A DNA stretch of 64,000 nt, taken from the NCBI GenBank assembly GCA_036821485.1, contig DAISJM010000001.1:72320-136319 (forward strand), in the 5' to 3' direction. Made by a program: the position numbers and the translations under genes. This document shows positions 5,599 to 47,328 of the stretch, piece after piece. The notes beneath the pieces were generated by a model. It was not told where the DNA came from, did not search any database, and was given only the letters and a program-made list of their open reading frames with translations. Each line of letters starts with the position of its first letter. Within the stretch, counting starts at the first letter, position 1. This DNA is from Verrucomicrobiota bacterium. GTDB lineage: Bacteria; Verrucomicrobiota; Kiritimatiellia; CAIQIC01; JAGNIJ01.

Positions 5599-5649
5599 TT
5601 TTTCCAACCCTTGGAAAAGACGCAGCACGATTTTCCAAGGGTTGGAAAC
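5598..5649. repeat. Palindromic element copy A (TTTTCCAACCCTTGGAAAA-N12-TTTTCCAAGGGTTGGAAA)
   Basis: A 19-bp arm and its exact reverse complement, separated by 12 nt. It starts at the stop codon of the upstream PLP gene and ends 14 nt before the ygeY RBS. Related copies lie at 19064-19117 and 47278-47328. Confidence 0.8.
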
Positions 5650-10726: not shown

Positions 10727-13168
10727 CTATGACTTCGCCTTCTTCTGCTTTCCGGGCGAGGTCTTGAATTCGTAGGCTTCGGGTTTCCCGAGGAAGCAGA
10801 GGCCGATGTAGTGGCCTTTCACATCGTCGTACGGGATGTGATTGAGCTCGAGCGCGATCTTCTCCGCGGTCAGCGGCATGCTCTTGATGCGGATCCCCAG
10901 CGCGTCTTCGATCGCGTTGGCGATGACCGGTGCGGCCGGGATCATGGTGTGCTCGCCGACGCCGCGCGCGCCGAACGGGCCATCGGGCTGCGCCACTTCG
11001 ACAATGATCGGCACAATCTCGTCGGGAATATCCAGTGCTGTCGGAATTTTGTAATCCGTAAAATTCGGGTTCAGCAGCTTGCCTTTGTGGTCATACCGGA
11101 TGTCTTCGTAGAGCGCTGTCGCGAGGCCCTGCACCACGCCGCCGGTGACCTGGCCTTTCACGAGGTCGGGGTTGATCGCTTTGCCGACGTCGGCTGCCAG
11201 CACCGCCTTCAGCACATGAATCTTGCCGGTCTTTCGGTCGATCTCCACTTTCACCGCCGAGGCGCCGACCGTGTAATGAACGTTCGGGTGTCCGCCCTGG
11301 CTGGTTTCCGGATCGCCTGTCGCCGAGGTGAATTCGGGCATGAACATGCCACTGCCGAGGATGGGCCCGCCGATGAAGTTCCCGCGCTTCGTCTGGATGC
11401 CGCTGATGACCATGTCCTTCAGCGCCATGGCGAAGTCGGGCTTCGTCCGGCACTTGATGGTCTCCTTTTCCAGGTAGAGGTCGGCGACGGCGAACCCGAG
11501 CGCGCGGTGTACCGTGTCGAAGATCTTCGCCTTTGCGTCAAGCGCCGCGGCCTTTACCGCGTTGCCGCAGCCCCACGTGACGTGCGAGCCGACGGTCTGC
11601 CATTCGTACGCGTTGCGGTCCGTGTCCGGCAACTCGACGCGGATATGTTCAACGGGAACAGTGAGCACCTCGGCCGCGACCTGCGCCATGACGGTAAGGA
11701 AGCCCTGCCCGATTTCCATGCCGGAGACGGTCAGGTTCAAGCTGCCATCTTCGTTGAACTTGATGAACGCCGCCGATGCGGCGTTCGGCGGCATCGCGGG
11801 CGCCTTCCAGAAGCAGGCGAAGCCCTTGCCGATGGCTTTGTTCGGGTCCTTCGACACTTCCTTCTTGCCCCAATCGATTTCCCTCGCAACCTTGTCGATG
11901 GCCTCGACAAGTCCGCTGGGATTCATCTCCGCGCCGTACGGCAGCGTGTCGCCGCCGCAAATGGCGTTCTTGCGCCGGAATTCGACGGGGTCCATGCCAA
12001 TCATCTTGGCGATGCGGTTCATATGCGACTCGAGGCCGAACATGAACTCCGAATAGCCGAAGCCGCGGTAAGGGCCGCCCGGCGGCAGGTTGGTATAGAC
12101 GCACACAGAATCGATTTTCACATTCGGCACGCGGTAGGGTCCGGTCGCGGAGAGGCCGACCGCGTTCACGACGTTCGCGCCGTACTCCACGTAGCCGCCG
12201 GCATCCCAGTGCAGGGTGTGTTCGATTGCGGTGATCGTGCCGTCCTTCTTCACGCCCAGCTTGATGCGGGCGATCACGCCCTGCCGCTGGTAGGTGTTGT
12301 AGAACTCCTGCGCGCGCGACCAGCGGACCTTGACCGGGTGGCCTTTGACCATCATGGCGAGGGCGGCGCCGAGGATTTCCATCGACACGCCTGCCTTGCC
12401 GCCGAATCCGCCGCCGACGTAGGGCGTGACCACGCGGACGTCCTTGTGCTTCAAGCCGAGCGGAGCGAGGGCCTCGGCGAACACGTGGCGCTGCGTGTAG
12501 GGCGATTGCGAGGCGGACCACAACGTGAGGCGGCCGGAGAGGTCGTAGAGGCCGACGATCACGTGCGGCTCGATCGCGCAGTGCGCGTAGCGCGGCACGG
12601 TGTAGGTGTCTTCGAGGATGGTGTCCGCTTCCTTGAATCCCTTTTCCATGTCGCCCTTGCGCGTCTTGCGCCAGTGGGCGATGTTGGTCCCGGCCTGCGG
12701 GAAGAACCACGCGCAGTGGTTGTACTTCTCGAGGTCCGGGTGGACGAGGGTGGCCTTCTCTTTCAGCGCGCCTTCCAGGTCGAGGACGTACGGCAGCTCC
12801 TCGTATTCTACGTGCACGAGCTTGGCCGCGAGCTTGGCTGTTTGCGCGTCGCGCGCGATGACGGCCGCGACCTGTTCGCCGACGAAGCGAACCCGATCGC
12901 GGGCGAAGATCCAGCGGTCCTGCATGTAGAGGCCGAAGCGGTAGGGGAAGTCGTCGCCGGTGACGACCTTGACCACGCCGGGAATCTTCTCGGCTTCTGC
13001 CGTGTCGATGTTCTTGATCCGTGCGTGGGCGAACGGGCTCTCGATGATTTCGGCATGCAGGAGGTTGGGGCCGAAATCCATGTCGTCCACGTACACCGCC
13101 GCGCCGCTGACCTTGTCCAGGCCATCGATGCGGACCGAGGGTTGTCCAACGTGTTTGAGTTCGCTCAT
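10727..13168 (-). CDS. Xanthine dehydrogenase family molybdopterin-binding large subunit
   Basis: 813 aa. GGGFGGK, the aldehyde oxidase/XDH a/b-hammerhead and MoCo-binding signatures are conserved throughout. Confidence 0.9.
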   Translation of the reverse strand: MSELKHVGQPSVRIDGLDKVSGAAVYVDDMDFGPNLLHAEIIESPFAHARIKNIDTAEAEKIPGVVKVVTGDDFPYRFGLYMQDRWIFARDRVRFVGEQVAAVIARDAQTAKLAAKLVHVEYEELPYVLDLEGALKEKATLVHPDLEKYNHCAWFFPQAGTNIAHWRKTRKGDMEKGFKEADTILEDTYTVPRYAHCAIEPHVIVGLYDLSGRLTLWSASQSPYTQRHVFAEALAPLGLKHKDVRVVTPYVGGGFGGKAGVSMEILGAALAMMVKGHPVKVRWSRAQEFYNTYQRQGVIARIKLGVKKDGTITAIEHTLHWDAGGYVEYGANVVNAVGLSATGPYRVPNVKIDSVCVYTNLPPGGPYRGFGYSEFMFGLESHMNRIAKMIGMDPVEFRRKNAICGGDTLPYGAEMNPSGLVEAIDKVAREIDWGKKEVSKDPNKAIGKGFACFWKAPAMPPNAASAAFIKFNEDGSLNLTVSGMEIGQGFLTVMAQVAAEVLTVPVEHIRVELPDTDRNAYEWQTVGSHVTWGCGNAVKAAALDAKAKIFDTVHRALGFAVADLYLEKETIKCRTKPDFAMALKDMVISGIQTKRGNFIGGPILGSGMFMPEFTSATGDPETSQGGHPNVHYTVGASAVKVEIDRKTGKIHVLKAVLAADVGKAINPDLVKGQVTGGVVQGLATALYEDIRYDHKGKLLNPNFTDYKIPTALDIPDEIVPIIVEVAQPDGPFGARGVGEHTMIPAAPVIANAIEDALGIRIKSMPLTAEKIALELNHIPYDDVKGHYIGLCFLGKPEAYEFKTSPGKQKKAKS

Positions 13169-13638
13169 GACCGCTTCCCTGCCTTCCTGCTCACTTCGCG
13201 AACGGCCTCGATGATGGGTTCATAGCCGGTGCAGCGGCACAGGTTGCCGGAAATCGCTTCCTGGATTTCCTTCTTGTCGGGGTGGCTATTGTGCCGGAGC
13301 AGTTCTGTCGCAGCCAGCACCATCCCCGACGCGCAGAAGCCGCATTGGAAAGCGTTGCGGTCGACGAACGCGTGTTGCAGCGGCGTCAGGCCGTCACGGC
13401 CGAGGCCTTCGACGGTGGTAATCTCATGTCCGTCCGCCTCGATGGCGAGGATGAGACAACTCCGGACGGTTTTCCCGTCGTAGAGGATTGTGCAGACGCC
13501 GCAGTCGCCGCGCTCGCAGCCGATCTTCGGGCTCTTGATGCCGAGCTTCTCGCGCAGGACATCCAGCAGGATGTCGGAGGGGGAGACATCGATGCTCCGA
13601 CGTTCACCGTTGAGCGTGATCGATATAGTCTTCTTCAT
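13165..13638 (-). CDS. (2Fe-2S)-binding small subunit of the molybdenum hydroxylase
   Basis: 157 aa with CERGDCGVCT and CGFCASGM cluster motifs. Its stop overlaps the large-subunit start. Confidence 0.9.
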   Translation of the reverse strand: MKKTISITLNGERRSIDVSPSDILLDVLREKLGIKSPKIGCERGDCGVCTILYDGKTVRSCLILAIEADGHEITTVEGLGRDGLTPLQHAFVDRNAFQCGFCASGMVLAATELLRHNSHPDKKEIQEAISGNLCRCTGYEPIIEAVREVSRKAGKRS

Positions 13639-13723
13639 GTGTGCTGCCTCGGAGTTGGAAAATCGAAATGTGAAAGTTGCCGGGAAGAGCCGGAGGTAAG
13701 TTTCCAGTTTCCAATTTCAAACG

Positions 13724-14614
13724 TCATATCAGCTCCTTCCCGTACTCGGGGCCGTCGCCCTCGAATCGTGAATCCGCCGCGCGGAGCGCGCGCTCCAACA
13801 TGACGCCGAGCATGTGCAACCGGTACTCCTTCGAAGAACGGATGTCGGTGATGGGCGACGCGATTTGTGGCACCATGGCAACCGCGGAGGCGACGAGCGC
13901 GTCCGTGATCGGCTTCCCCTCGAGCAGCTTCTCGATGGGCGTCGCGCGGATCGGGGTGGGGGCGACCGAACCGAAGGCGACGCGGTAGCTCTGCCCGTGG
14001 AACAGCATGACCGTGACGCTCGCCTGGGCGAGGTCCTCGCCGCTGTAGCGGCGCAATTTCACGAAGCAGCCCGCATGTTTTCTCCGGGGCTGCGGTATGG
14101 TGATGGCGACCGCGACCTCGCCCTTGTGGAGCGACGTCTTGCGCGGGCCGGTGAACCACTCCGCGATGGGAATCTTCCGCTTGCCCTTCGGGCCGGCCAC
14201 GTGAACCGTGGCATCGTAGACCAGCAGGATCGGGCCGCTATCGCAGCATGGGACGGCGGAGCAGATATTGCCGGCCATCGTCGCGCGATGCCGGATGCCG
14301 TTGGAAGCCACCCAGCCGATCATCTCGCGGATCAGCGGGAACTTCTTGCGGACCACGTTCGACTCGGCGATGTCGCTGAAGGTCGCAAGCGAGCCAATCC
14401 GGAGCGCGCCATCCTTGAGCGATACGCCGTCCAGCCCGCGGATGCCCTTGAGGTCGATCACCGCCTCGGGGCGGACGATGTCCTCCGTCATCAGGCTGAT
14501 GAGGTCGGTACCGCCCGCGAGCAGGCGACCGCGGTCGCCGTAGCGCGCCAGTGCCCGCGCGGCCTCGGCAACCGATGCGGGCTTCAGATAATCAAACGCA
14601 CGAGCAATGGTCAT
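13724..14614 (-). CDS. FAD-binding subunit (CoxM/XdhB-like) of the molybdenum hydroxylase
   Basis: Start trimmed to MTIARAFDYLKP (ATG at 14614) after a GGAAGGGAG RBS. LLAGGTDLISLM is the FAD-binding motif. Confidence 0.85.
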   Translation of the reverse strand: MTIARAFDYLKPASVAEAARALARYGDRGRLLAGGTDLISLMTEDIVRPEAVIDLKGIRGLDGVSLKDGALRIGSLATFSDIAESNVVRKKFPLIREMIGWVASNGIRHRATMAGNICSAVPCCDSGPILLVYDATVHVAGPKGKRKIPIAEWFTGPRKTSLHKGEVAVAITIPQPRRKHAGCFVKLRRYSGEDLAQASVTVMLFHGQSYRVAFGSVAPTPIRATPIEKLLEGKPITDALVASAVAMVPQIASPITDIRSSKEYRLHMLGVMLERALRAADSRFEGDGPEYGKELI

Positions 14615-14649
14615 GATGCTCCCTTCCGCGTTCCGCTCTCCTGATTCAA

Positions 14650-15468
14650 TTACTTGGGCGGCAGCATCGCGACGATGCGACACTGCGCCGATTCCAGTTC
14701 AATTCCGCGCATCGGGAAGCAGCCGATCCAGCAGCGCTGGTTGCTCAGCTTCCCGATCTCGCCGCCGATATTCTCCGCATGCACGAGTTTCTTGGGGAAC
14801 AACTTGAGATGCATGACCTGGTAGTAGTAATCCGGCGGGAACATCTCGTCCCAGCTCTTGCCGTACTTCGCCTTCAGCTTGGCCTCGGCCTCGAGGAACC
14901 GTGCCGGATGCCAGGTGCGGATAATCGTGTTCATGGGGTGATCCGCGCTGCCGCAGTCGACGCCGATCCACTTGATCTTCATCTTCAGCGCCCACTTGTC
15001 GAAGCCGGGGCCGGGGCCAGGATGTTTCACGAAGTAACGGACTTCGTCCGAACCGGGCTGATCCCATGCGTAGCGATTGTAGCCGGTGTTGATGATCAGG
15101 ATGTCGCCCTTCCGGATGTCCGCGCGTTTCATCAGCATTTCGGGCGAATAGAGGTCATAGTCGCCGACGTCTTTTGAAATATCGACGACGACGCCGGGGC
15201 CGATCCACTCCTTGATCGGCACGTTGCCGATCGACCGGCCACTGGCATGGAAATGGATTTCACCATCCATGTGCGTGCCCACGTGGTTGCTCATGGTGAT
15301 GATCTGCCCGTTCGCGCCTTGGCCCATGTGTGCGCCGGCGATGCGCTTGAAATACTGGATGCCCATCGGCATATAGCTCGGCCACGGCGGCGTGTGAATG
15401 CTTAGCCGCTGGGTCAGATCGAACACGCGCGCTTCAGCCATTAATTTGATGAAATCGTTAGTCTTCAT
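14650..15468 (-). CDS. Cyclase-family protein (kynurenine formamidase-like metal-dependent hydrolase)
   Basis: 272 aa. The HVGTHMDGEIHF motif is typical of the putative-cyclase family. Confidence 0.8.
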   Translation of the reverse strand: MKTNDFIKLMAEARVFDLTQRLSIHTPPWPSYMPMGIQYFKRIAGAHMGQGANGQIITMSNHVGTHMDGEIHFHASGRSIGNVPIKEWIGPGVVVDISKDVGDYDLYSPEMLMKRADIRKGDILIINTGYNRYAWDQPGSDEVRYFVKHPGPGPGFDKWALKMKIKWIGVDCGSADHPMNTIIRTWHPARFLEAEAKLKAKYGKSWDEMFPPDYYYQVMHLKLFPKKLVHAENIGGEIGKLSNQRCWIGCFPMRGIELESAQCRIVAMLPPK

Positions 15469-15510
15469 TTTCCCGCACCTCCGGTTTCGTGTTGTTCGTG
15501 TCTTTCGTGG

Positions 15511-16791
15511 TTACTTCTTTAATCCTTTTGCCAATCCTTCAAACGCCTTCCGGAACGGTTCCAGCGGGGCGTTCAGCACGCCCGCGCCGATCTGGCCGAC
15601 ACCCGCCTGCTTGTGCGCGACACCGGTGTCGATGAACGGAAGGATGTTCTTCTCGATGATCTTCACGACGTCGATGCCAGTCGGTGTGCCGCGGAAATTG
15701 AGCGCCGGCACCTGGTACGCGTTATTCTCCCCGGCGGTGATTTCGTACATCTGTGTCGTGTAGCGAATCGAGTCGGCGACCTGGCCGCCGACGAACTGGA
15801 CAATCGCAGGCGCGGCGGCGATGGCGAAGCCGCCGAGGCCGTTGGTTTCCGTGATCGCGCTGTCGCCGATGTCCGGATTCGCGTCGGCCTTCGTGTAGCC
15901 GGGGAAATACAGCGCATCCGGCACGTCGGCAGGCCCGGTGAACCACGCGTTGCCCGTGCCGGCGAGTTGTACGCCGAAGTCGGTGCCGTTGCGCGCCATG
16001 ACGACTGCCACGCTGCTATTGGGGATGTTGCGCGCGGCATCGAGTGTCGCCTTCGATGCGGGCATGGAGAGGTTCAGGAAGAAGTGGTCGTTATGGTTGA
16101 TGAACTCCAGCACGTCGGAAGCGGTCTTCGGATCCGGCGCAGTGGTGATGACGGCCGGTGCAATCGTGCGATAGAGGATGGACGTTCCCGCGCGATTGCG
16201 GTTGTGGACCTCGTCGCCCATATGCAGCGCCTGCGCAATGATGTTCTTCAAATCGATCACGCCGATTTTCGCGATGGCCTTTTTCAGCGTCGGATAGAGC
16301 ACGCGCTCCATCCATTTGAGTCTCGCCACAACATCGTCCCCGTAGGCGCCGTAGCGCAGCACTTTGCCCAGCCCCTCGTTCTGCGTGCAGTAGGCGAAGT
16401 TGCCGAACGTGGCATTCTTCAGGACGAACACGGGCATGGAAGGGGAGATGATGCCGGCCATAGGGCCGACTGATGCGTGCTCGTGGCAGGGCGCATATTT
16501 GATGGTGCCGGATGACGCGAGGGCCTCGGCCTCTGTCGGGTTCTTTGCGCGGCCTTCATAGATCAGTGCGCCCATGATCGCGCCGCGCATCGGGCCGCAC
16601 ATCCGTTCCCAAGTCACCGGCGGGCCGGCGTGCAGGATCAGGTCGCGTTTCATGCCGGGGATGATGTCGATCGCGCGCTCCATGCCCACGAGCTGCGGCA
16701 TGCCGCCCAAGATGATTTCGATCGCCTTGCGGTTGGCCTTCTCAATGGCCGGTCGCCGTGCCGCGATGATCCGCAGAAGCTTGTCATCCAT
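15511..16791 (-). CDS. DUF1116 protein (YlbE homolog; oxamate carbamoyltransferase subunit family)
   Basis: Start chosen at MDDKLLRIIAARRP, giving 426 aa, close to E. coli YlbE at ~419 aa. LHAGPPVTWERMCGPMRGAIMGAL..YAPCHEHASVGPMAG match the family. The alternative GTG at 16932 (GTGA overlap with fdrA) would add 47 aa. Confidence 0.7.
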   Translation of the reverse strand: MDDKLLRIIAARRPAIEKANRKAIEIILGGMPQLVGMERAIDIIPGMKRDLILHAGPPVTWERMCGPMRGAIMGALIYEGRAKNPTEAEALASSGTIKYAPCHEHASVGPMAGIISPSMPVFVLKNATFGNFAYCTQNEGLGKVLRYGAYGDDVVARLKWMERVLYPTLKKAIAKIGVIDLKNIIAQALHMGDEVHNRNRAGTSILYRTIAPAVITTAPDPKTASDVLEFINHNDHFFLNLSMPASKATLDAARNIPNSSVAVVMARNGTDFGVQLAGTGNAWFTGPADVPDALYFPGYTKADANPDIGDSAITETNGLGGFAIAAAPAIVQFVGGQVADSIRYTTQMYEITAGENNAYQVPALNFRGTPTGIDVVKIIEKNILPFIDTGVAHKQAGVGQIGAGVLNAPLEPFRKAFEGLAKGLKK

Positions 16792-16928
16792 GTCCACCGG
16801 TGGCTTCCAGTCCACCTGTACCGCCTGTGCGCCGGAGGATGCCAGCGCATCCTTGAACGACGACAAGCCGAAGTTGACCACCTTGAGGTCCGTTTCAAAA
16901 AGCTGGTTAATGCCGCTCTTCTTCTTGC

Positions 16929-18428
16929 TCACTTCCCACCTGCCTTTGCCGCGTTGCCGGCGTATGCACACGCTGCGGCGTTGCTCGGCATCACGATGGC
17001 TCCAGCAGCCTTCAGGGCTTTGACCACCCGTGAACGATTCTGCGGGTCGCCGTCGGTGCCGGTGACCGAACATACCACCGGAACTTTGCGCGAGGCCGTG
17101 CGGATCACCGGTGCAAGTTCCGCGGCCGGGTCCATGTTCGAGCCGTAACCGAGTACGACGTCCAGCAGGATCACGGCAGTCTCGGGATCAGCCGCCTCCG
17201 CCAGAATCCGTTTGTTGCGTAACGAGAAGTCGATCATCGGATGCGGTCGGCCGACGGTAAACTCGTCCTCGCCCAGATCGACGAACGAGTGCTTCTGGCT
17301 CTTCAACGAATCCTTGAGCCGCTTCGTCCTGCCGGTCGGCGCGTTGGAGTAGAGTTGGCCGAGCGTGTCCTCGAGAATGATTTGCGCTTCTGCGCAGAAC
17401 GTTCCGCCGCTGAACAAGCCCCGGACGTATTTGCGGCGGCCGCGGGCGCGCCGCGGCCGGCTCTGAGATCCGACCCTATCTTGAAGGTCTTCAATCTTGC
17501 GGCCTGTCGCGAGCGCAACTGCTTGCAGCGCAGCCTCTTCCAGCGTCTTTGGTCCGTCTCCTTCCGCGCCGAGAAGTAGCGAGACAACGGGCTTACGGAT
17601 GCGGCGCACTTCACGGCGGACGCGGTTCAGCACGCTGGGGTGGGGCGGTTTGGAGACGAGCAGGATGACCTTCGTCTGCGGGTCGGCGGCGAGCGCCTTC
17701 AGGCCGGCGAGGAACATGATGCCGCCGACTTCCTTCTTTACGTCGCGCCCGCCCGTGCCGATTGCCTGTGAAATACCGGAGCCTTCGTTGGAGATGATGG
17801 TGCTGACTTCCTGGAGTCCGGTTCCGGCGGCGGCGACGATGCCGATCGGGCCGCGGCGAACCACGTTGGCGAAGGCGAGCGGGATGCCGTTGATGATCGC
17901 CGTGCCGCAGTCGGGACCCATGACGAGCAATCCCTTCTTTGCCGCGAACTTCTTGAGTTCGATTTCCTTCTCGATCGGCACGTTGTCGGAAAAGAGCATG
18001 ACGTGCAGGCCCTTCTCAAGACAGCGCATCGCGAGCGAGCCGGCATAACGACCGGCGACGGAGATCAACGCGAGGTTCGCGCCCGGCAGAACCTTCACGG
18101 CGCCGTCGAGATCAGACGGGAGCGTTTCACCGGAGGAAGTCCCGACGGCCGCGGCCTTGCTCTTGAGCGCGGCCTCGGCTGCGTTCAAAGCGGCCTCGGC
18201 TGTCTTGGCATCGCGCGCCTTCACGGCCAGCAGCAGGTCGGTATCGGTTGCCTTGGCAAAATCGGAGATCAGCAGGCCGGACGCCTTGAGGATGCCGAGG
18301 TTCGACTTCGTGCCCATGACAAGCGCGGCTTCGGCGACGCCGTCCGTGCCGGCAATGCTTTTGCCTACGCGCATCAGCGAGACGGAATCGTGGTAGGCGC
18401 CCTTTTTGATTCTGCCGAGGGTAATCAT
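16929..18428 (-). CDS. fdrA: FdrA-family protein (acyl-CoA synthetase/succinyl-CoA-synthetase-alpha-like)
   Basis: 499 aa. MITLGRIKKGAYHDSVSLMRV is a typical FdrA N-terminus, followed by CoA-binding and ATP-grasp-like regions. Confidence 0.85.
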   Translation of the reverse strand: MITLGRIKKGAYHDSVSLMRVGKSIAGTDGVAEAALVMGTKSNLGILKASGLLISDFAKATDTDLLLAVKARDAKTAEAALNAAEAALKSKAAAVGTSSGETLPSDLDGAVKVLPGANLALISVAGRYAGSLAMRCLEKGLHVMLFSDNVPIEKEIELKKFAAKKGLLVMGPDCGTAIINGIPLAFANVVRRGPIGIVAAAGTGLQEVSTIISNEGSGISQAIGTGGRDVKKEVGGIMFLAGLKALAADPQTKVILLVSKPPHPSVLNRVRREVRRIRKPVVSLLLGAEGDGPKTLEEAALQAVALATGRKIEDLQDRVGSQSRPRRARGRRKYVRGLFSGGTFCAEAQIILEDTLGQLYSNAPTGRTKRLKDSLKSQKHSFVDLGEDEFTVGRPHPMIDFSLRNKRILAEAADPETAVILLDVVLGYGSNMDPAAELAPVIRTASRKVPVVCSVTGTDGDPQNRSRVVKALKAAGAIVMPSNAAACAYAGNAAKAGGK

Positions 18429-19420
18429 TTTCGAGCCTTTGTTTTGAGGTTCCCCGTGGGTTCACCCCACGGGGGCCAGAATTCTGCCTCCTGCCGGTCA
18501 AGCCGGCAGGGAGGCAGGAGCATGGAGGCTCCCCGTGGGTTGACCCCACGGGAGCCAGAATTCTGCCTCCTGCCGCGCAAGGTGGCAGGGAGGCTCTTCA
18601 ACATCAACACGAACCCTGCGGTGAGGTCGGCGCCCGACGTTTCGCCGAGGGCAAGTACGCGACGGCCGCAGGAACGAACTTCGCGCGCGCTGCCGTGAAG
18701 CAGCGCGCCGATCAGGTTCTTCATCGGTTCAGCGACGAATCCGTCGCGGGCGAGGCCGAGAAAATGGGCGGAGAGCCGATGCCGAGTCCTCGCTGCAGCG
18801 TGGATCGTGGCAATCGCGCGGGAGTAATCGGTGTTTGTCAGGTTTCCTGCGAGATGCAGGGCCATCATTGCGCCTGCGAGGAAATCGTCGCCGCCCGGTG
18901 TCAGGCCAAAGCCACAACCGGCGAGGAGACGGCTCCCGCGCGCGAGCCGGCGCGGGTTGTTTAATCCGTCGAGCATGTCCTTCGCGCCCGCACGAATGCG
19001 CCGCGCAAACTGGCGGGAGAGCAAATCGGGCCCGGGCGCAGCGTGGGGGTCGAGCAGGAGCAAAAAGTTCCAAGGGTTGGAAAACTGGGGTACCCATTTT
19101 TCCAAGGATTTGAAATTTCGTGCGAAGCGCCGGCCGGGTACCTCATCGCGCGCGAGGTCGGAGCGATAGACCGGAGTCCGGCGGATGACGTGGCGGCGAT
19201 CGGAGAGGGTGACTGAACCGCGGCGGATGATCAGGCGTGGCGCGGCGCCGCAGAAGTCGCGCGCGGAACCTGCGACGACAAGGTTGGCCGGGCCAGCGCC
19301 GATCTCGGCGCTGACGACGGACACAAGGCGGCCGCCGCGGACGAAATTCACGGCACGATCAAAGCGGGAGTGAACGCAATACGTTCCTTCCCGCACTCTG
19401 TCGCCGATACTCAGCAGCAT
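18425..19420 (-). CDS. DUF2877 protein (YlbF homolog) carrying in-frame repeat-derived sequence
   Basis: GFGLTPGGDDFLAGAMMAL is the DUF2877 motif. The ORF is 331 aa against ~270 typical. The last ~60 codons are read from a tandem palindromic repeat, and codons ~101-118 from a TTCCAA palindromic element. Confidence 0.6.
   Translation of the reverse strand: MLLSIGDRVREGTYCVHSRFDRAVNFVRGGRLVSVVSAEIGAGPANLVVAGSARDFCGAAPRLIIRRGSVTLSDRRHVIRRTPVYRSDLARDEVPGRRFARNFKSLEKWVPQFSNPWNFLLLLDPHAAPGPDLLSRQFARRIRAGAKDMLDGLNNPRRLARGSRLLAGCGFGLTPGGDDFLAGAMMALHLAGNLTNTDYSRAIATIHAAARTRHRLSAHFLGLARDGFVAEPMKNLIGALLHGSAREVRSCGRRVLALGETSGADLTAGFVLMLKSLPATLRGRRQNSGSRGVNPRGASMLLPPCRLDRQEAEFWPPWGEPTGNLKTKARK
18449..18597. 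repeat. Two tandem ~78-bp units, each built of three palindromes
   Basis: The units are >90% identical: CCCCGTGGG-TTSAC-CCCACGGG, CAGAATTCTG and CCTCCTGCCGG-N-CCGGCAGGGAGG. They lie at the 3' end of the DUF2877 ORF, just upstream of the fdrA start. Confidence 0.8.
19064..19117. repeat. Palindromic element copy C (TTCCAAGGGTTGGAA-N12-TTCCAAGGATTTGAA), in-frame inside the DUF2877 gene
   Basis: Same family as 5598-5649 and 47278-47328, with the second half degenerate. It is 54 bp (18 codons) and translates as KSLEKWVPQFSNPWNFLL. Confidence 0.7.
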
Positions 19421-19455
19421 GAGCGGTTCCTGTCGGCGCCGCCTTGGGGCAACGC

Positions 19456-19803
19456 CTATTTCACCTCGGAGAAAATCATACCGAGGTGTTTCCGAAGATC
19501 GCTTTGTCTCACCACCGAGACGCTGCCCGTCACGGCCATGCCGGTGCGGGGTTTATCGATGTTGAGTTGGCCCAGGATGCGGAGACCGTTCTCCAACTCG
19601 ACAATGCCGAGCAGGAGCGTGGGCACGTTGAAATCGCCGGGCAGCGTGTGCAGCCGGGTGAAGGTCAGCAGCTTGCCTTTTCTCGGCAGGGGCACGGGTT
19701 CGAATTCATTGTGCTCGTTGGCATGGCACTTCTTGCAGACCATGCGGTAGGGGTAGTGGAGCTGGCCGCATTTCCGACATTTATAGGCATAGATTTCGGC
19801 CAT
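19456..19803 (-). CDS. DUF35 Zn-ribbon/OB-fold protein (thiolase/HMG-CoA-synthase partner)
   Basis: 115 aa. MAEIYAYKCRKCGQLHYPYRMVCKKCH is a C-x2-C...C-x2-C ribbon. RBS GGGAGGA. It starts 2 nt after the thiolase stop. Confidence 0.8.
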   Translation of the reverse strand: MAEIYAYKCRKCGQLHYPYRMVCKKCHANEHNEFEPVPLPRKGKLLTFTRLHTLPGDFNVPTLLLGIVELENGLRILGQLNIDKPRTGMAVTGSVSVVRQSDLRKHLGMIFSEVK

Positions 19804-19805
19804 GG

Positions 19806-20981
19806 CTAATCCTCCCGGATAAAGGTCAGGCAGACGACGTTGTTGCCGAATCCGCCGAAGTTGCAGGTGAAGCCTACCTTCGCATCCTTGACCTGGCGTT
19901 TGCGCGCTTCGCCGCGCAGTTGGGTGACGATTTCGTGCGCCTGCCCGATCCCGGTTGCGCCGACGGGGTGTCCCTTGGCCTTGAGGCCGCCGGACGTGTT
20001 GATCGGGATCTTGCCGCCGATGCGGGTCTCGCCCTTTTCGAGCGCGATGTGACCCTGCCCTTTCTTGAAGAAGCCGACTTCCTCGCTCTCGACGATCTCG
20101 AGGATGGTGAACGCATCGTGCAGTTCGGCCACGCTGACATCGGATGGTTTCACACCGGCCATCTTGAACGACTGCTCGGCGGCGCGGCGCACGGCCAGCA
20201 GGTCCGTCGGGTTCTCGCGCTCGTGTACCGCATGCGTGTCGGTCGCCTGGCCGACGCCGGCGAGGCGGACGAGCGGGCGGCCGGTCTTCTTTGCGACTTC
20301 CTTCGTGGCGAGAATGACGCATGCGCCGCCGTCGGAAACGGGGCATAGATCGAAGAATCGTAGCGGCTCGGCGACGTACGGGTTGTTCGTCAGCGCCTCG
20401 GGTCCGTCGAGGATGCCCTCGATCGTGATCTTCTGGTGCAGGTGGGCGAACGGGTTGAGCATCGCGTTGTCGTGGTTCTTCACCGCGACCATGGCGAGGT
20501 GGCGCGAGGTGACGCCGTACTGCTCCATGTAGAGCCGGGTGAACATGCCCGCGAGGGAGGGCAGGGTCACGCCGTAGATGTATTCCGCGATCTGGTGCGT
20601 GAGCGTGGCGACGAAGTCCGTCGCCTCGAGGTTGTTGGTTTCGCGCATGCGTTCCGCGCCGGTGACCATGACAACGTCGTGGAGGCCGGAGGCGACCGCC
20701 ATGAAGCCCTGCTTGATGGCGGAAGCGCCGGAAGCGGGTCCGTTTTCAATCGTTTCCGCGCCGGCGGGTGTGAGGCTGAGGGTATCGATCACGGCGCTGG
20801 CGAGCGCGGTCTGACCGTTCACGCGGCCGCTGCCCATGTTGGCCACGTAGAGGTGATCGATCTTCGACAGCCCGGCGTCCTTGAGGGCGATCATCGCCGG
20901 ATAGGCGGCGATTTCGGAGATGGGGTAATCGAGCCGGGAGAAGCTCGTGATGCCGATGCCGACGACATAGACCTCGCGCAT
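19806..20981 (-). CDS. Thiolase-like protein (archaeal-type acetyl-CoA acetyltransferase / SCP-x-like)
   Basis: Start at MREVYVVGIGITSF (ATG at 20981, RBS GGGAAGG). The condensing-enzyme fold is recognisable and the C-terminus reads NFGGFGNNVVCLTF. Confidence 0.85.
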   Translation of the reverse strand: MREVYVVGIGITSFSRLDYPISEIAAYPAMIALKDAGLSKIDHLYVANMGSGRVNGQTALASAVIDTLSLTPAGAETIENGPASGASAIKQGFMAVASGLHDVVMVTGAERMRETNNLEATDFVATLTHQIAEYIYGVTLPSLAGMFTRLYMEQYGVTSRHLAMVAVKNHDNAMLNPFAHLHQKITIEGILDGPEALTNNPYVAEPLRFFDLCPVSDGGACVILATKEVAKKTGRPLVRLAGVGQATDTHAVHERENPTDLLAVRRAAEQSFKMAGVKPSDVSVAELHDAFTILEIVESEEVGFFKKGQGHIALEKGETRIGGKIPINTSGGLKAKGHPVGATGIGQAHEIVTQLRGEARKRQVKDAKVGFTCNFGGFGNNVVCLTFIRED

Positions 20982-20982
20982 G

Positions 20983-21756
20983 TTACGCCTTCCCTTCGGG
21001 GCCGTCGGCTTCGCCATGCTCGAGCCTCCAGCGCTGCTGGAGGATCGCGGTGCCGGTGGGGTCCTTCATGGCCCGCGTGGCTGCCATGAGATCCGCGGGC
21101 GGTTTGGGCGGGTTGGATGGCGGAAGAATCTTGTCCTGCGCCTTCTTCAGTTCATCCGGCGGGACGGGGCGGCGGCCGACGACGAGCGTGCTGCGCGCCT
21201 TGTTGAATAATTCCTTGGTCAGCGCCCACGAGGGGACGCCGCCGAGTTCGTGGGCGATGTCGAACCGCTTCTCGAGCTGGTACTCGATCATCCACCGGCG
21301 GAAGCCGATGGGCGATTCGGCGACGATGAGGACCTCCTTCTGGCCGACGATGTCGAGGTGGTACTCCATCTTGGCCGCGAAGGCGTGAGCGCCGACGCGG
21401 AGGCCGCGCCGGAGGGCGAGGGTGTGGTAGGACACGCCGACGTCCTTGCTGGCAAAGCGGCCGTTGACGATCGCGGCGAGCTCGCCGTTGATCTGGGCGA
21501 TCAGCACGTACTCGTCCTGAACGCGATGGCGGTAGTAGCCGAGCAGTTCGGCGTACACGCGTACGGAAACGATGTCGTAGAAATCGCGCTCGACGTGGAT
21601 CAGCGGTTCCACGTGCGGAAGGAGGTCGGGAATTTCTTCGCGCCCCACCTGGCGGACGACCATGTTCTCGCCGCTGGCGAGCTGCATGAACTTGGGTGGA
21701 AACGGCGGCGCGGGGTGATCGATCGGCCGGAGGATTTTCTCGAGTTCTACCGCCAT
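20983..21756 (-). CDS. Hypothetical protein, first gene of the minus-strand catabolic operon
   Basis: 257 aa starting at MAVELEKIL (RBS AAGGGGG). No recognisable motif; an acyltransferase-like alpha/beta pattern is possible. Confidence 0.45.
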   Translation of the reverse strand: MAVELEKILRPIDHPAPPFPPKFMQLASGENMVVRQVGREEIPDLLPHVEPLIHVERDFYDIVSVRVYAELLGYYRHRVQDEYVLIAQINGELAAIVNGRFASKDVGVSYHTLALRRGLRVGAHAFAAKMEYHLDIVGQKEVLIVAESPIGFRRWMIEYQLEKRFDIAHELGGVPSWALTKELFNKARSTLVVGRRPVPPDELKKAQDKILPPSNPPKPPADLMAATRAMKDPTGTAILQQRWRLEHGEADGPEGKA

Positions 21757-21962
21757 AAGACCCCCTTTCAAGGTGCCTCAAGTTATGTACGGCTCGGTGC
21801 CTGAAATGTTAATACGGGCAGGGGGGAAAGGCGAGTGCCGAAACAGTGATCGGTGACCCGTGAGTAGTTGGCGGTTTTTGAGTGACAATGGGCCGGGATC
21901 GGGAACAATAGTCCGGCACGCAGTGCCAAGGTTTCCGTGTTGTAAGCGAAAGGAATCCAACG

Positions 21963-22934
21963 ATGGCCAGGTCCCGAACCGCATCAGGGCTGAAGTCCCG
22001 CGTGAAACGCGTGACGGTTGCCGGCGTACAGGTCTCCCCGCGCCCGAACGATATTCCCCACAACGTGGAGATGGTGATCTCGTGGTTTCGGCGCGCGGTG
22101 CGCGAGACGGATGCGCGACTGGTCGTGTTCCCGGAGAGCATCACCACCGGGTTTCATCCCGGCATGCCGCTGGAGCAATTTCACGATCTGCTGCCGCGCC
22201 GCGTCGAATCGATGCTGGCGCCGATCCAGCAGGTGTGCCGCGAGAAGAAGTCTTATTGCGTGGTACCGACCTATGAGCGCGGGCGCGGGCATCGCACGAT
22301 CTACAACAGCGCGTTCCTGATCGACGGGCGAGGCGATATCGCCGGCGTCTACCGCAAGACGCATCCGTTTCCGACGGAGCGGTTGAGCGCGGGCGGCTGG
22401 ACGACGCCGGGCATGGAGTATCCCGTGATTCCGACCGAGTTCGGCGCCGTCGGCATGATGATCTGCTACGACGGCGATTTCCCGGAAGTGTCACGTATCC
22501 TCGCGATCAAGGGTGCGCAAATCATCGCGCGGCCGTCCGCGCTGCTGCGCGGGTTCGACGTGTGGGAGATGACGAACAACGTGCGTGCCTATGACAACCA
22601 CGTCTACCTCGTGGCGGTCAACGCGGTCGGCACCGATGCGTCCGGCACGCACTACTTCGGCCACAGCATGATCGTCTCGCCGACGGCGCAGGCGCTGGCC
22701 GTGGCGCGCGGCACGGAGGAGATCATCTACGCGGAACTGAATCCCAATCCGCTCAAACGGCTGGGGTTGGGTTCCGATGCGCCGATGCTGTTCGACCATC
22801 TTGAGGACCGCAATGTCGCGTCGTACGGTTCGGTGTTGTCGCGGTCGGTCCGCAGCCCGTTCGAGCCGGCGAAGAGGTTCAGTATTCACAAGCACACGCC
22901 GCAACGCGGGAAGAAGTCCGGGAGGTCCTCATGA
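21963..22934 (+). CDS. Carbon-nitrogen hydrolase (nitrilase-superfamily amidase / N-carbamoyl-amidohydrolase-like)
   Basis: 323 aa. The E-K-C catalytic triad context is present: LVVFPES, YRKTHPF and MMICYDGDFPE. RBS GAAAGGAA. Confidence 0.85.
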   Translation: MARSRTASGLKSRVKRVTVAGVQVSPRPNDIPHNVEMVISWFRRAVRETDARLVVFPESITTGFHPGMPLEQFHDLLPRRVESMLAPIQQVCREKKSYCVVPTYERGRGHRTIYNSAFLIDGRGDIAGVYRKTHPFPTERLSAGGWTTPGMEYPVIPTEFGAVGMMICYDGDFPEVSRILAIKGAQIIARPSALLRGFDVWEMTNNVRAYDNHVYLVAVNAVGTDASGTHYFGHSMIVSPTAQALAVARGTEEIIYAELNPNPLKRLGLGSDAPMLFDHLEDRNVASYGSVLSRSVRSPFEPAKRFSIHKHTPQRGKKSGRSS

Positions 22935-24559
22935 AGTTCGACCGCAACAGGAAGGACTACGAGGAGCGCATCCGCCGGGGCCGCGCGTTCGCCGACGGCA
23001 AGCTGGTGCCGAAGGAGCGCGTGGTGGACCTGCTCAACGCCGTGCTGAAGCGGGGCGACCGGGTGTGCATCGAGGGCGACAATCAGAAGCAGGCCGATTT
23101 CCTCGCAAAGCGGCTGCTCGAGGTGGATCGCAAAAAGATTCGCGACCTGCACATGGTGCAGTCGACGCTCGTGTTGCCGGAGCACGTCGAGCTGTTCCGG
23201 CAGGGCATTGCGTCGCGGCTGGATTTTGCCTACTCGGGCCCGCAAGCGAAGAACCTCTATCAATTGGTGGCCGAGAAGAAGGTCCGCATCGGGGCGATTC
23301 ACACGTACCTGGAGCTCTACGGCCGTTACTTCGTGGACCTTTGTCCGCAGGTGGCGATGCTCGTTGCCGAGGCTTGCGACGACGAGGGCAACATCTACAC
23401 CGGGTTCAATACGGAAGATACGGCGCTGATCAGCGAGGCAGCCCACTTCAAGTCCGGCGTGGTCATCATCCAAGTGAAGGAGAAGGTGCGCAAGCTGCCG
23501 CGCGTGGACATTCCCGCGGGCTGGGTGGACTTCATCGTCGTCACCGGCGAGGAGTATCACCTGCAGGCGCTTTTCACGCGCGACCCGGGGAAGATCACTG
23601 CATCGCAAGTGCTCATGGCGATGATGGTGATGAAGGGTATCTACAAGGAATACCAGGTGCGGTCGCTGAATCACGGGCTTGGCTACGCCACGGCGGCGAT
23701 TGAGCTGCTGCTGCCCACCTACGGGCGCGAGCTGGGCCTGAAGGGCAAGTGCTGTACGCACTGGGTGCTCAATCCGCATCCGACGCTGATCCCCGCGATC
23801 GAGCGCGGCTTCGTGGAGCACATCTATTCCTTCGGCGGCGAGCCGGGCATGGAGGCGTACACGCAGGCGCGGGGCGACGTGTTCTCGATCGGCTCCGACG
23901 GTAACCTGCGCTCGAATCGGTGCTACGCGCACATTGCGGGGTTGTACGCCATCGACTTGTTCATCGGCGCGACGCTGCAGATGGACGGGGATGGAAATAG
24001 TTCCACAGCCATCAAGGGTATGATCGCCGGATTCGGCGGGGCGCCCAATCTCGGCGGCACCCCGCCGGGGCGGCGGAATTTCACCGAGGCGCTGGTGCGG
24101 GCGGGTCGCTGGGACGGGAAGGTGTTCCAGGGTCGCAAACTCGTCGTGCAGATGACGCCGACGGTGAGCGAGAAGAAGCAGATCCCGGTGTTCGTCGAAG
24201 AGCTCGACGCGATGACGCTTTACCGGGACAAAGTTTTTGCGAAACCGCCGGTGATGATCGCGGGCGACCAGGTGACGCACGTGGTGACGGAGCGTGGCAT
24301 CGCGTATCTCGACCGCTGCAAGGATTTGGCGACGCGGCGGCTGGCGATCGCCGCCGTGGCGGGCGACACACCGGTTGGCCGTACGATCAAGAAATCACAG
24401 GTGGGTCCGCTGCGACGCGCGGGCATTGTGAAGACGGCGGAAGACTTGGGGATCGATGTTCAGAAGGCGACGCCGGACCGGTTGGCGGCGCACAGCCTGG
24501 CCGATCTCGTGCGGATTTCGAAGGGCCTGTATTCTGTGCCGCCCGGCGTCACGGGGTGA
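22931..24559 (+). CDS. Malonate decarboxylase alpha-subunit (MdcA)-like acyl-transferase (citrate-lyase-alpha/CoA-transferase fold); orphan, with no mdcBCDE nearby
   Basis: 542 aa. It matches MdcA along its length from memory: GDRVCIEGDNQKQADFL, DLHMVQST, IGAIHTYLELYGRYF, LPRVDIPAGWVDF, TAAIELLLPTYG, GSDGNLRSNR, AGFGGAPNLGG and GRKLVVQM. ATGA overlap with the upstream hydrolase. Confidence 0.6.
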   Translation: MKFDRNRKDYEERIRRGRAFADGKLVPKERVVDLLNAVLKRGDRVCIEGDNQKQADFLAKRLLEVDRKKIRDLHMVQSTLVLPEHVELFRQGIASRLDFAYSGPQAKNLYQLVAEKKVRIGAIHTYLELYGRYFVDLCPQVAMLVAEACDDEGNIYTGFNTEDTALISEAAHFKSGVVIIQVKEKVRKLPRVDIPAGWVDFIVVTGEEYHLQALFTRDPGKITASQVLMAMMVMKGIYKEYQVRSLNHGLGYATAAIELLLPTYGRELGLKGKCCTHWVLNPHPTLIPAIERGFVEHIYSFGGEPGMEAYTQARGDVFSIGSDGNLRSNRCYAHIAGLYAIDLFIGATLQMDGDGNSSTAIKGMIAGFGGAPNLGGTPPGRRNFTEALVRAGRWDGKVFQGRKLVVQMTPTVSEKKQIPVFVEELDAMTLYRDKVFAKPPVMIAGDQVTHVVTERGIAYLDRCKDLATRRLAIAAVAGDTPVGRTIKKSQVGPLRRAGIVKTAEDLGIDVQKATPDRLAAHSLADLVRISKGLYSVPPGVTG

Positions 24560-30920: not shown

Positions 30921-32132
30921 ATGAAGAAGAAACAGCCCCCCCGACCGAGCATTTCCAGCCTGATCTCAGACATTCGCAAACTCAAGGCCGACCTGTGCGG
31001 GAAAGACTTTCTGCTGACGTGGGACAAGTCCGTCCCCGAATTGAAGCTCGTGGTGCAGGTGGCGGAGGCTTTGAAACAACTGCACGCGAAGAACATTTCC
31101 GCCAAGGTCTTTGAGACGGGGCTGGCCGTTTCGAACTTCCGCGACAATTCGACCCGGACACGCTTCTCCTTTGCATCCGCCTGCAATCTGCTCGGCCTTG
31201 CGGTGCAGGATCTTGACGAAGGCAAATCGCAGATCGCCCATGGCGAAACCGTTCGCGAGACGGCGAACATGATCTCGTTCCTCACCGAGGTGATTGGTAT
31301 TCGTGACGACATGTTCCTTGGCGCGGGTCACACCTACATGCTGGAGGTCGGCGAGGCGTTGGATGATGGATTCAAGCGCGGCGTGTTGAACCAGCGTCCG
31401 GCCATTGTGAATCTGCAGTGCGACATCGATCATCCGACGCAGAGCATGGCGGACTTGATGTGGCTGCGCGAATACTTCGGCGGGATCGAGAATCTGAAGG
31501 GCAAGAAGATTGCCATGACGTGGGCCTACTCGCCGAGCTACGGCAAGCCGCTCTCCGTGCCGCAGGGCATCATCGGTTTGATGACGCGATTTGGCATGCA
31601 TGTCTCGCTCGCGCATCCGGAGGGATACGACCTGATTCCGGATGTGATCGAGGTGGCGAAGAAGAACGCGAAGGCGGCGGGCGGCAGTTTCACGCAGGGG
31701 ACATCGATGGAGGCCGCGTTCAAGGATGCGGACATCGTGTATCCCAAGTCGTGGGCGCCCTACAAGGTCATGGGGACGCGGACAGAACTCCTGCGCGCGA
31801 ATGATCGCGACGGTCTGAAGGAGTTGGAGAAGAAGTGCCTTGCGCAGAACGCCAACTTCAAGAACTGGGAGTGCACGGAACAGAAGATGAAGCTGACGAA
31901 GGGCGGCAAGGCGCTCTACATGCACTGCCTGCCTGCGGACATTTCCGGTGTCTCCTGCAAGGAAGGCGAAGTGGCCGATTCCGTGTTCGAACGGTACCGC
32001 ATCGAGACGTACAAGGAAGCCGGCTACAAACCGTTTGTCATTGCGGCGATGATTCTGACGAGTCGATTCAAGGATCCTGCAGCCATCATTTCCGGCCTTG
32101 CCAGGCAAGGCAACAAGCGGATTGCCGGGTGA
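30921..32132 (+). CDS. ygeW: Knotted carbamoyltransferase YgeW
   Basis: 403 aa, near-collinear with E. coli YgeW from memory: FRDNSTRTRFSFASA, DEGKSQIAHGETVRETANMISF, CDIDHPTQSMADLMWL and ALYMHCLPADISGVSCKEGEV. Confidence 0.9.
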   Translation: MKKKQPPRPSISSLISDIRKLKADLCGKDFLLTWDKSVPELKLVVQVAEALKQLHAKNISAKVFETGLAVSNFRDNSTRTRFSFASACNLLGLAVQDLDEGKSQIAHGETVRETANMISFLTEVIGIRDDMFLGAGHTYMLEVGEALDDGFKRGVLNQRPAIVNLQCDIDHPTQSMADLMWLREYFGGIENLKGKKIAMTWAYSPSYGKPLSVPQGIIGLMTRFGMHVSLAHPEGYDLIPDVIEVAKKNAKAAGGSFTQGTSMEAAFKDADIVYPKSWAPYKVMGTRTELLRANDRDGLKELEKKCLAQNANFKNWECTEQKMKLTKGGKALYMHCLPADISGVSCKEGEVADSVFERYRIETYKEAGYKPFVIAAMILTSRFKDPAAIISGLARQGNKRIAG

Positions 32133-32242
32133 ATGTCCAATGACCAATGCCCGAATGACCAGTGAAGGCGCAGCAGACGGGAGTCTTCTATTATTGGGCC
32201 TTGGTGCTTGGTCAATGGTCATTGCTCAGGAGGGTCCATTGC

Positions 32243-33190: not shown

Positions 33191-33200
33191 AATGGGGGCT

Positions 33201-47277: not shown

Positions 47278-47328
47278 ATTTTCCAACCCTTGGAAAATCG
47301 AGCGCTATTTTTTCCAAGGGTTGGAAAA
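47278..47328. repeat. Palindromic element copy B (TTTTCCAACCCTTGGAAAA-N12-TTTTCCAAGGGTTGGAAAAA) between convergent rlmN and the antiporter gene
   Basis: The arms are identical to copy A (5598-5649); only the 12-nt spacer differs. Confidence 0.8.

Follow-up and report, generated by a model that had tools for sequence, protein, structure and literature searches.

Hyper-iterated motifs that are written in place are known as HIP1 (highly iterated palindrome 1, GCGATCGC) in cyanobacteria, the DNA uptake sequence (DUS) of Neisseria, and the uptake signal sequence (USS) of Pasteurellaceae. At enterobacterial intercistronic junctions, for example, that of malE-malF, repetitive extragenic palindromic (REP) sequences and bacterial interspersed mosaic elements (BIMEs) protect mRNA 3' ends. 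The E. coli oxamic transcarbamylase consists of AllF, AllG, and AllH, and AllH, a protein of 271 amino acids (aa), is required for activity (PMC11326118). The present analysis concerns the allH (DUF2877) gene at positions 18425..19420 of the minus strand in a 64,000-nucleotide (nt) stretch of a metagenome-assembled Kiritimatiellia genome (contig DAISJM010000001.1); this whole stretch is referred to below as the window. Taken together, the data were best explained, with good confidence, by an allH gene that is intact, evolves under purifying selection, and bears two features at the DNA level that are unrelated to each other, namely, a tandem hairpin module at its 3' end and a pair of palindromic boxes of the form TTCCAA-N3-TTGGAA within its codons. 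The box family is the more notable result, and the C-terminal tail encoded by the module is a modestly interesting forced in-frame hairpin insertion.

Integrity of the allH gene

The allH open reading frame (ORF) encodes 331 aa, is annotated by NCBI with the same product, HPF98498.1, on a 284-kb contig, and matched the Pfam AllH family (PF11392) with 77.9 bits (cutoff, 25), residues 167 to 273 corresponding to profile positions 2 to 108 of 109. A protein search for relatives returned five close ortholog clusters and approximately 115 distant ones. A first-pass annotation of the window, made from the sequence and its ORFs, had put this ORF at about 60 aa above the family norm, and the excess was borne out: the norm is ~271 to 282 aa, and the protein was 49 to 60 aa longer than 14 of 19 aligned homologs and E. 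coli AllH. Over its full length, it was collinear with the family, including the motifs GxGLTPxGDD and GxTSGAD, and it kept 27/27 of the family-invariant columns in the homolog alignment. The sole length excess was the C-terminal tail.

The core of the gene, codons 1 to 275 (18596..19420, minus strand), was homologous to the family throughout and under purifying selection, as shown by the family alignment, by the ratio of nonsynonymous to synonymous substitution rates (dN/dS), and by the predicted local distance difference test (pLDDT) score. Core dN/dS was 0.21 to 0.28 in all 10 pairwise comparisons among five sequences, with dS ranging from 0.09 to 0.90. The frame was open, without stop or frameshift, in five independent assemblies. 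An AlphaFold2 model computed with alignment input had a mean pLDDT of 80.9, and residues 1 to 283 were modeled confidently, mostly at >90. AllH had no significant match in the PDB by sequence or by fold, the best Foldseek hit being FakA (E = 0.19), and a promoter and terminator scan of positions 18300 to 19600 found none on the coding strand. The 331-aa call is correct, and the operon is best treated as functional; that DNA inside a gene looks like a repeat is not in itself a sign of decay.

The tandem hairpin module at the allH/allF junction

The last ~55 codons of allH were found to consist of a tandem repeat. Tandem Repeats Finder reported a single array at 18446-18594 with a period of 79, 1.9 copies, 90% matches, and a score of 249. 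The tandem palindromic repeat described in the first-pass annotation was therefore present, with two hairpins and a GAATTC palindrome per unit, but with a period of 79 nt rather than 78. As 79 is not divisible by three, the reading frame changes from the first unit to the second, and their translations differ accordingly (GRRQNSGSRGVNPRGAS versus RQEAEFWPPWGEPTGNL). Each unit is made up of a hairpin X (CCTCCCTGCC...GGCAGGAGG), the GAATTC-centered palindrome CAGAATTCTG, and a hairpin Y (GGCTCCCGTGGGGT..ACCCACGGGGAGCC). In unit A, which is translated first (18521..18600, minus strand), these elements lie at 18566-18593, 18555-18567, and 18527-18556, respectively; in unit B, which is read in the other frame (18442..18520, minus strand), they lie at 18487-18514, 18476-18488, and 18452-18477. 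The unit RNAs folded at -44.3 and -50.6 kcal/mol (z = -4.1 and -6.3), and the RNA spanning the stretch between the core and the allF start folded at -111.7 kcal/mol (z = -5.7). The ribosome-binding site of allF, AAAGG, comes after unit B, and the TGA stop of allH (18425-18427, minus strand) overlaps the allF start as ATGA. A search of Rfam with the repeat region gave no match, only subthreshold chance hits.

At the protein level, the extension comprises residues 276 to 331 (18428..18595, minus strand) and is lineage specific, being absent from the orthologs P0004 and P0005 and from distant homologs. As translated from the open frame, one peptide of the tail is QEAEFWPPWGEPTGNLK. AlphaFold2 assigned a pLDDT of <50 to residues 284 to 331, and the tail is predicted to be a disordered appendage past the last helix (residues 262 to 276).

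The first-pass annotation had proposed a comparison of close relatives, and this comparison showed the tail to be variably present, with 0, 1, or 2 units. In the alignment, the AllH family ends 2 to 8 residues past the helix GFxxxLK, and the two orthologs without a tail, P0004 (77% identical) and P0005 (72%), end 6 to 8 residues beyond their GFVLMLK helix. A two-unit tail like that of the window was found in P0001 (95% identical) and P0002 (83%), while P0003 (69%) has one unit, preceded by an unrelated 27-codon palindromic segment. When the DNAs were aligned, the empty site at the junction read ...AAGACGATGGAAGGGATATCATGATC; in the window, ~20 nt of this site were swapped for ~190 nt comprising the two units together with CTCAAAACAAAGGCTCGAAAATGA, which supplies a new tail and ribosome-binding site. 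In the variant with one unit, this tail has an additional A, an unrelated 81-nt segment of other palindromes is present, and the gene still closes at ATGA. In the locus of this one-unit relative (L002:6820-6900), the 81 nt, or 27 codons, are built of nested palindromes of another kind (GGTAGGGACG...CGTCCCTACC) at this place; the allH/allF junction has therefore acquired palindromic DNA more than once.

The junction was ATGA in L001, L002, and the contig of P0004, a 10-nt overlap in L131, which encodes a 40%-identical homolog, and a 1-nt gap in L133. Since so tight a junction has no intergenic space, anything inserted there would be translated. As judged by the alignments, the ~55 residues at the C terminus were added in frame from the repeat and are specific to this lineage. 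Additions to the C terminus of AllH are tolerated, since a C-terminal His6 tag leaves E. coli AllFGH active (PMC11326118).

In the proposed history, a GC-rich, two-hairpin, 79-nt palindromic module would have entered the allH 3' end in part of a Kiritimatiellia clade and then have been duplicated in tandem in this genome. With allH and allF translationally coupled via ATGA and without a spacer, the module would have come to lie inside the ORF. Ribosomes would read through the hairpins to the ancestral TGA, adding a disordered tail of ~50 residues, and would reinitiate at allF, and only arrangements that are open and in frame to that TGA would persist. Of the three forward frames, two can be read through the repeat without a stop, and only one of these reaches ATGA; of the other frames, one would stop inside unit B and the third would run ~100 codons into allF. 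It is plausible that in-frame arrangements were kept by selection for coupled termination, but the two independent states do not prove it. The tail itself would most likely be a tolerated passenger peptide, and any function of the module would more likely be exerted at the mRNA level, through stability, processing, or tuning of allF initiation. A spacerless gene junction forces an incoming hairpin module into translation, and the relatives with 0, 1, and 2 units form a natural series for the effects of such a module on coupled translation.

An mRNA-level role taken further would make the module a selected cis-acting RNA element, i.e., a stabilizer, a processing site, or a translation brake setting AllH:AllF, with the tail as a by-product. 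This reading is possible although doubtful. It is favored by the four very stable hairpins immediately upstream of the allF ribosome-binding site, by the module having supplied its own AAAGG site in place of the ancestral GGAAGGG, and by the gain of palindromic segments at the junction at least twice. In addition, unit B and the unit of L002 were 95% identical, compared with ~85% for the flanking allF and 73.5% for the allH core. Nevertheless, the module is missing in two orthologs with the same operon, the unit copy number varies, Rfam holds no match, and the copies are too few and too similar for a covariation test.

That the module is instead a copy of a mobile palindromic element, of the REP, BIME, miniature inverted-repeat transposable element (MITE), or Rickettsia palindromic element (RPE) kind, transposed into the gene is unlikely on the evidence of its distribution. 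Neither the 64-kb window nor ~26 kb of related loci yielded another copy of the 79-nt unit, scans for its core pattern in GTDB genomes, taken at one per species, and in JGI contigs found nothing, and a six-frame peptide search of 5.8 billion proteins returned AllH relatives only. As far as was seen within these searches, the composite unit is known only from the allH/allF junction, and no clear terminal inverted repeats or target-site duplication was seen there. The unit is nevertheless palindromic, in frame, and variably present in close relatives, and in-frame palindromic insertion has a precedent in Rickettsia (PMC10969869). The sequence GAGCCTCC stands at both ends of unit A, yet it also occurs within the 79-nt period, and the empty sites are strongly diverged. 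When a looser, hairpin-only pattern was used, the 22-nt hairpin Y recurred in seven JGI contigs, unrelated metagenome sequences of which five (L125 to L128 and L130) also held X-like hairpins, with X and Y in separate tandem arrays of period 68 to 70 nt. The X and Y hairpins are hence members of a broader class of palindromic units. In the same five contigs, arrays around CCCGTGGGGTAAACCCACGGGG adjoin arrays around CCCTGCCGGTTTATCCGGCAGG, the same hairpin types as in the 79-nt unit; the X and Y arrays of the JGI contigs had no Rfam match.

One further pattern was seen at the repeat. Between the window and the related locus L005, the repeat was 99.4% identical and the allH cores 79.5%. In a sliding comparison of window positions 17383-19687 with L005, identity jumped to 95 to 100% from ~18610 and continued so through >1 kb of allF. 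This is a recombination or assembly mosaic with its breakpoint at the repeat. The near-identity of the repeat in L005 had been considered as a sign of constraint and was rejected on account of this mosaic breakpoint.

The TTCCAA-N3-TTGGAA box in allH and other genes

The second feature of allH lies in codons 103 to 120 (19064..19118, minus strand) and consists of box 1 at 19100-19114 (TTCAAATCCTTGGAA) and box 2 at 19068-19082 (TTCCAACCCTTGGAA), which are 32 nt apart. Box 2 is exact, and box 1 has one mismatch. The first-pass annotation had regarded a TTCCAA palindromic element near residue 100 as one of two in-frame repeat insertions, had proposed homolog alignments as a check, and had named as refuting an alignment in which these segments are family sequence. 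The palindromic pair was indeed found within these codons, but it is not an insertion: residues 103 to 120 aligned gap-free with the family segment RNLxxLExxLxxxSxPxSLAFLLD, with L-E and S-x-P kept. The option, raised at first pass, that the organism tolerates a repeat-derived peptide hence applies to the C-terminal tail, which is lineage specific and absent in P0004 and P0005, and not to the TTCCAA stretch, which is family sequence of unchanged length. In the AllH model, this stretch was confidently predicted as a helix (residues 96 to 113), a turn, and a second helix (residues 119 to 122). In distant homologs, the corresponding segment is equally long, is encoded by different codons, and lacks the box.

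In contrast to the distant homologs, five orthologous DNAs share the reading AAT TTC CAA TCC TTG GAA AAA TGG GTN NCC CNG TTT TCC AAC CCT TGG AAC TTT, with one C>A change in the window, and the box pair was almost invariant among orthologs with dS of ~0.6 to 0.9. The 57-nt block around the boxes had 5 variable sites versus a gene median of 22, and among degenerate codons for invariant amino acids, 12/13 were codon identical in this block versus 69/162 gene-wide. These counts argue that the allH boxes are constrained at the DNA level. The consensus fold of the region was a 24-pair hairpin with no compensatory change, and it is silent on RNA structure either way.

A nucleotide conservation equal to that of the TTCCAA block was also seen at the 5' end of allH (19364-19420), where the first 19 codons had 5 variable sites per 57 nt and 15/17 of the invariant degenerate codons were codon identical. 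This conservation may come from translation initiation or another RNA-level constraint.

The box was not confined to allH. The window held 5 exact boxes and 7 with ≤2 mismatches, against a shuffle mean of 1.3, and the observed count was reached in 0/100 shuffles. Two further pairs are intergenic, with exact boxes starting at 5602 and 5633 and at 47281 and 47312, and both form perfect 19-bp hairpins with complementary CCC and GGG centers. The pair at 5602..5647, between PALP-domain and M20 peptidase genes, folded at -30.7 kcal/mol (z = -6.5), and that at 47281..47326, between convergent radical-SAM and Na/H-exchanger genes, at -32.4 kcal/mol (z = -5.5). The two intergenic pairs begin 4 and 23 nt past a stop codon; one is located just upstream of the AGGAGG ribosome-binding site of the M20 peptidase gene, and the other is the pair between the convergent genes.

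A scan for two boxes 12 to 22 nt apart in genomes of Kiritimatiellia, Lentisphaerae, and Verrucomicrobiota, which belong to the Planctomycetes-Verrucomicrobia-Chlamydiae (PVC) bacteria, found more than 118 stretches. Among the matches listed, there were 384 boxes in 845 kb versus 0.05 expected by chance, the loci having been chosen for containing a pair. For these same matches, the start-to-start spacing peaked at 31 nt (98 cases) and 32 nt (78 cases), arrays ran to as many as six boxes, and the flanks were T-rich on the 5' side and A-rich on the 3' side. A long-hairpin model for all pairs was rejected, since the central triplets were complementary in only 47/186 pairs among the matches listed.

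Boxes were also present within genuine genes. Intragenic status was assigned from Pfam and PDB anchors together with gene calls, as maximal ORFs overextend in GC-rich DNA. Boxes were found in the C-terminal domain of NamZ, in AroB and MnmE (a pair and a single box in each), in a linker of NadE, and also in PriA_C, a PstA-like permease, a kinase linker, and TsaB. Residue-by-residue alignment of NamZ, AroB, and MnmE with the solved homologs 4k05, 3zok, and 1xzp, respectively, showed no insertion at the boxes, and all three reading frames were used (FQxLE, SNxWK, and FPxxGK). A 21-kb locus of Tichowtungia aerotolerans, chosen for aroB and not for boxes, had 8 exact boxes, all in genes, and 15 boxes with ≤1 mismatch, including intragenic pairs 31 nt apart. 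At AroB residue 199, three genomes have TTC CAA NNN TTG GAA, while a genome without an exact box in 21 kb encodes the same F-x-x-L-E, as F-R-K-L-E, via TTC CGG AAA CTG GAG. Among 120 Kiritimatiellales orthologs, the FQxLEK peptide was widespread at both AroB sites.

At the level of individual loci, boxes in housekeeping genes, at orthologous positions and often as pairs 31 nt apart, were observed in L134 (T. aerotolerans CP047593), L136, L102, L110, L094, L056, and L118. The genes concerned included those for AroB, TsaB, TsaE, an M28 peptidase, photolyase, NamZ, MnmE, NadE, and PriA. In the Kiritimatiellaceae metagenome-assembled genome (MAG) L135, 21 kb were free of exact boxes. The PriA helicase ORF of a PVC MAG with boxes (L118:2696-5599, plus strand) matched Pfam Y1_Tnp, an IS200-like transposase domain, at residues 238 to 327, which separate the 3'BD and helicase domains. 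REP elements are mobilized by transposases of the Y1 family, and the match may be relevant or a coincidence.

Residues 103 to 120 of AllH are accordingly best read as ordinary family sequence whose codons have been shaped by substitutions, not by insertions or deletions (indels), into two boxes, and the pair as one local case of a hyperabundant box of Kiritimatiellia and related PVC bacteria. An origin by pasting from a dispersed copy, through insertion with an equal-length deletion or through short-patch gene conversion, is considerably less credible. Box 2 does equal the intergenic copies of the genome, including the CCC center and the T/A flanks, and the 32-nt spacing is that of the box family. 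The spacer between the allH boxes, on the other hand, is unrelated to those of the intergenic copies, the length is unchanged with the family residues L, E, K, V, S, and P at their exact positions, the same in-place pattern recurs in NamZ, AroB, and MnmE, and the box-poor genome encodes the same peptide motif with other codons.

Under the preferred reading of in-place substitution, the box has been written into many genes in three frames and kept at orthologous sites, a pattern that would imply DNA- or RNA-level constraint or molecular drive. The phasing of 31 to 32 bp, or three helical turns, is kept inside genes, where it forces two reading frames, and would argue for DNA recognition by a multimeric protein or for drive by biased uptake. 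We tentatively propose, at somewhat less than even confidence, that TTCCAA-N3-TTGGAA is a previously undescribed genome-wide signal of Kiritimatiellia and neighboring PVC lineages, present in hundreds to about a thousand copies per genome and maintained through a recognition system of its own, which could be a DNA-binding protein acting as a dimer of dimers, an uptake receptor, or a modification enzyme, with the allH pair as one conserved instance. No description of the box in PVC bacteria was found in the literature searched. The box seems to be a hyperabundant phased palindrome that overrides codon choice in housekeeping genes, in a phylum that has been little studied. Should it serve as a recognition signal, it would point to a new DNA-binding, uptake, or modification system in PVC bacteria and represent a second or third independent case of signal-proteome coevolution. 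A cultured host exists in T. aerotolerans.

Several points weigh against the account given here of the two features. Nucleotide-level conservation of the box over orthologs was measured for allH only, the AroB data being supportive but thinner, and box 1 of the window itself has a C>A change relative to the orthologs, giving Q>K. For the module, translation of the tail is presumed from the open frame only. In-frame survival of the two insertion states would occur by chance in ~1 of 9 cases, and selection for the ATGA stop is therefore not proven. Moreover, the near-identity with L005 is uninformative on constraint, and no copy of the module turned up elsewhere in the searches made.

Two further readings retain little credibility. 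A functional role of the tail as a protein segment, for example, as a docking peptide, is very improbable: its frame is open to the ATGA stop in two different arrangements, but the units are in different frames and so yield no repeated peptide, the segment is predicted to be disordered and is absent in orthologs, and the six-frame search of 5.8 billion proteins found no homolog in any other protein. The other option given in the first-pass annotation, a decaying gene, which would leave the operon nonfunctional, can be dismissed almost entirely, because the low dN/dS and the presence of every family-invariant residue, together with the absence of stops and frameshifts in five assemblies, the confident model of residues 1 to 283, and the retained coupled ATGA junctions, outweigh a faster evolution than that of the neighbors (~75% nucleotide identity versus ~90% for the thiolase-like gene) and a long tail foreign to the family.

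Operon context and comparison with known systems

Downstream of allH, allF (fdrA; 16929..18428, minus strand) encodes 499 aa and matched NCBIfam NF004760 with 487 bits and Pfam Ligase_CoA; its E. coli counterpart has 555 aa. The allF stop overlaps the GTG start of allG as GTGA. The allG (DUF1116) gene (15511..16932, minus strand; 473 aa) matched Pfam AllG with 323.6 bits, and its start was placed with the help of the gene calls of L002. Residues 52 to 104 of the maximal allG ORF (15511-17073) matched FdrA model positions 501 to 552 (E = 4e-5), so that in this lineage it is the beginning of allG that encodes the C-terminal segment of FdrA.

The window region 10727-24559 contains genes for a three-subunit xanthine-dehydrogenase-type enzyme, a cyclase, AllG, AllF, and AllH, DUF35-like and thiolase-like proteins, a 257-aa protein, a CN-hydrolase, and an MdcA-like protein. 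In L002, the CN-hydrolase gene and the 257-aa gene are separated by a MazE/PIN toxin-antitoxin pair (L002:2834-3477), which the window lacks at the equivalent place. A YgeW-like carbamoyltransferase, a carbamate kinase, and a pyridoxal phosphate (PLP) enzyme are encoded at 30921-34478. The block allH-allF-allG-cyclase-Mo-dehydrogenase was conserved in L131.

The trio had been annotated at first pass as oxamate carbamoyltransferase-like, and the assignment to the AllH, AllF, and AllG families stands; the enzyme need not be of the E. coli type. As in E. coli AllFGH (PMC11326118), a single operon encodes all three protein families. Unlike in E. coli, the order is allH-allF-allG, and the neighbors are a xanthine-dehydrogenase-type molybdoenzyme, a cyclase, a thiolase-like/DUF35 pair, a CN-hydrolase, and an MdcA-like protein. 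An operon with carbamate kinase and allantoin genes as in E. coli was not found, the nearest AA_kinase gene (32162-33190) lying beside the YgeW-like carbamoyltransferase gene, 13 kb away. Since gene order and neighbors differ from those of E. coli, the substrate may also differ. The gene content suggests that the neighborhood could be a catabolic island for a nitrogen heterocycle, and malonurate in place of oxalurate as the substrate is speculation.

The 79-nt module resembles REP and BIME sequences in being composed of tandem GC-rich imperfect palindromes between cistrons, where they could influence the stability of the mRNA or translation downstream. By definition, REPs lie outside genes, and they occur in hundreds of copies, whereas the module is coding, inside the allH ORF, at a junction without intergenic space. 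With RPEs and other intragenic MITE, ERIC, or BOX insertions that give in-frame fusions (PMC10969869; Ogata et al. 2000 as cited there), the module shares the presence of in-frame hairpin DNA in a metabolic gene that is translated as an extra peptide, tolerated, and variably present in close relatives. Like RPEs and MITEs, it is palindromic, in frame, and absent from orthologs, but no multicopy dispersed family was found in the 64-kb window and the collections searched. RPEs are dispersed elements of ~100 to 150 bp in dozens of copies, whereas the module was found at one gene junction only, at the extreme 3' end rather than within the fold, with its copies in different frames.

The box, in turn, is like HIP1, the Neisseria DUS, and the Pasteurellaceae USS in its overrepresentation by orders of magnitude in both coding and noncoding DNA, its indel-free origin by substitution, its use of three frames within genes, its retention at orthologous sites beyond what the protein needs, and its inverted pairs downstream of genes. 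It is unlike them in being a 15-bp interrupted palindrome with a free 3-nt center, in forming pairs and arrays phased at 31 to 32 nt even within genes, and in its PVC hosts. We know of no link between the box and competence or a methyltransferase. By analogy, such a signal may be a counterpart of the USS and DUS or of HIP1 with a new architecture, in which single boxes, pairs, and arrays are phased at 31 to 32 bp.

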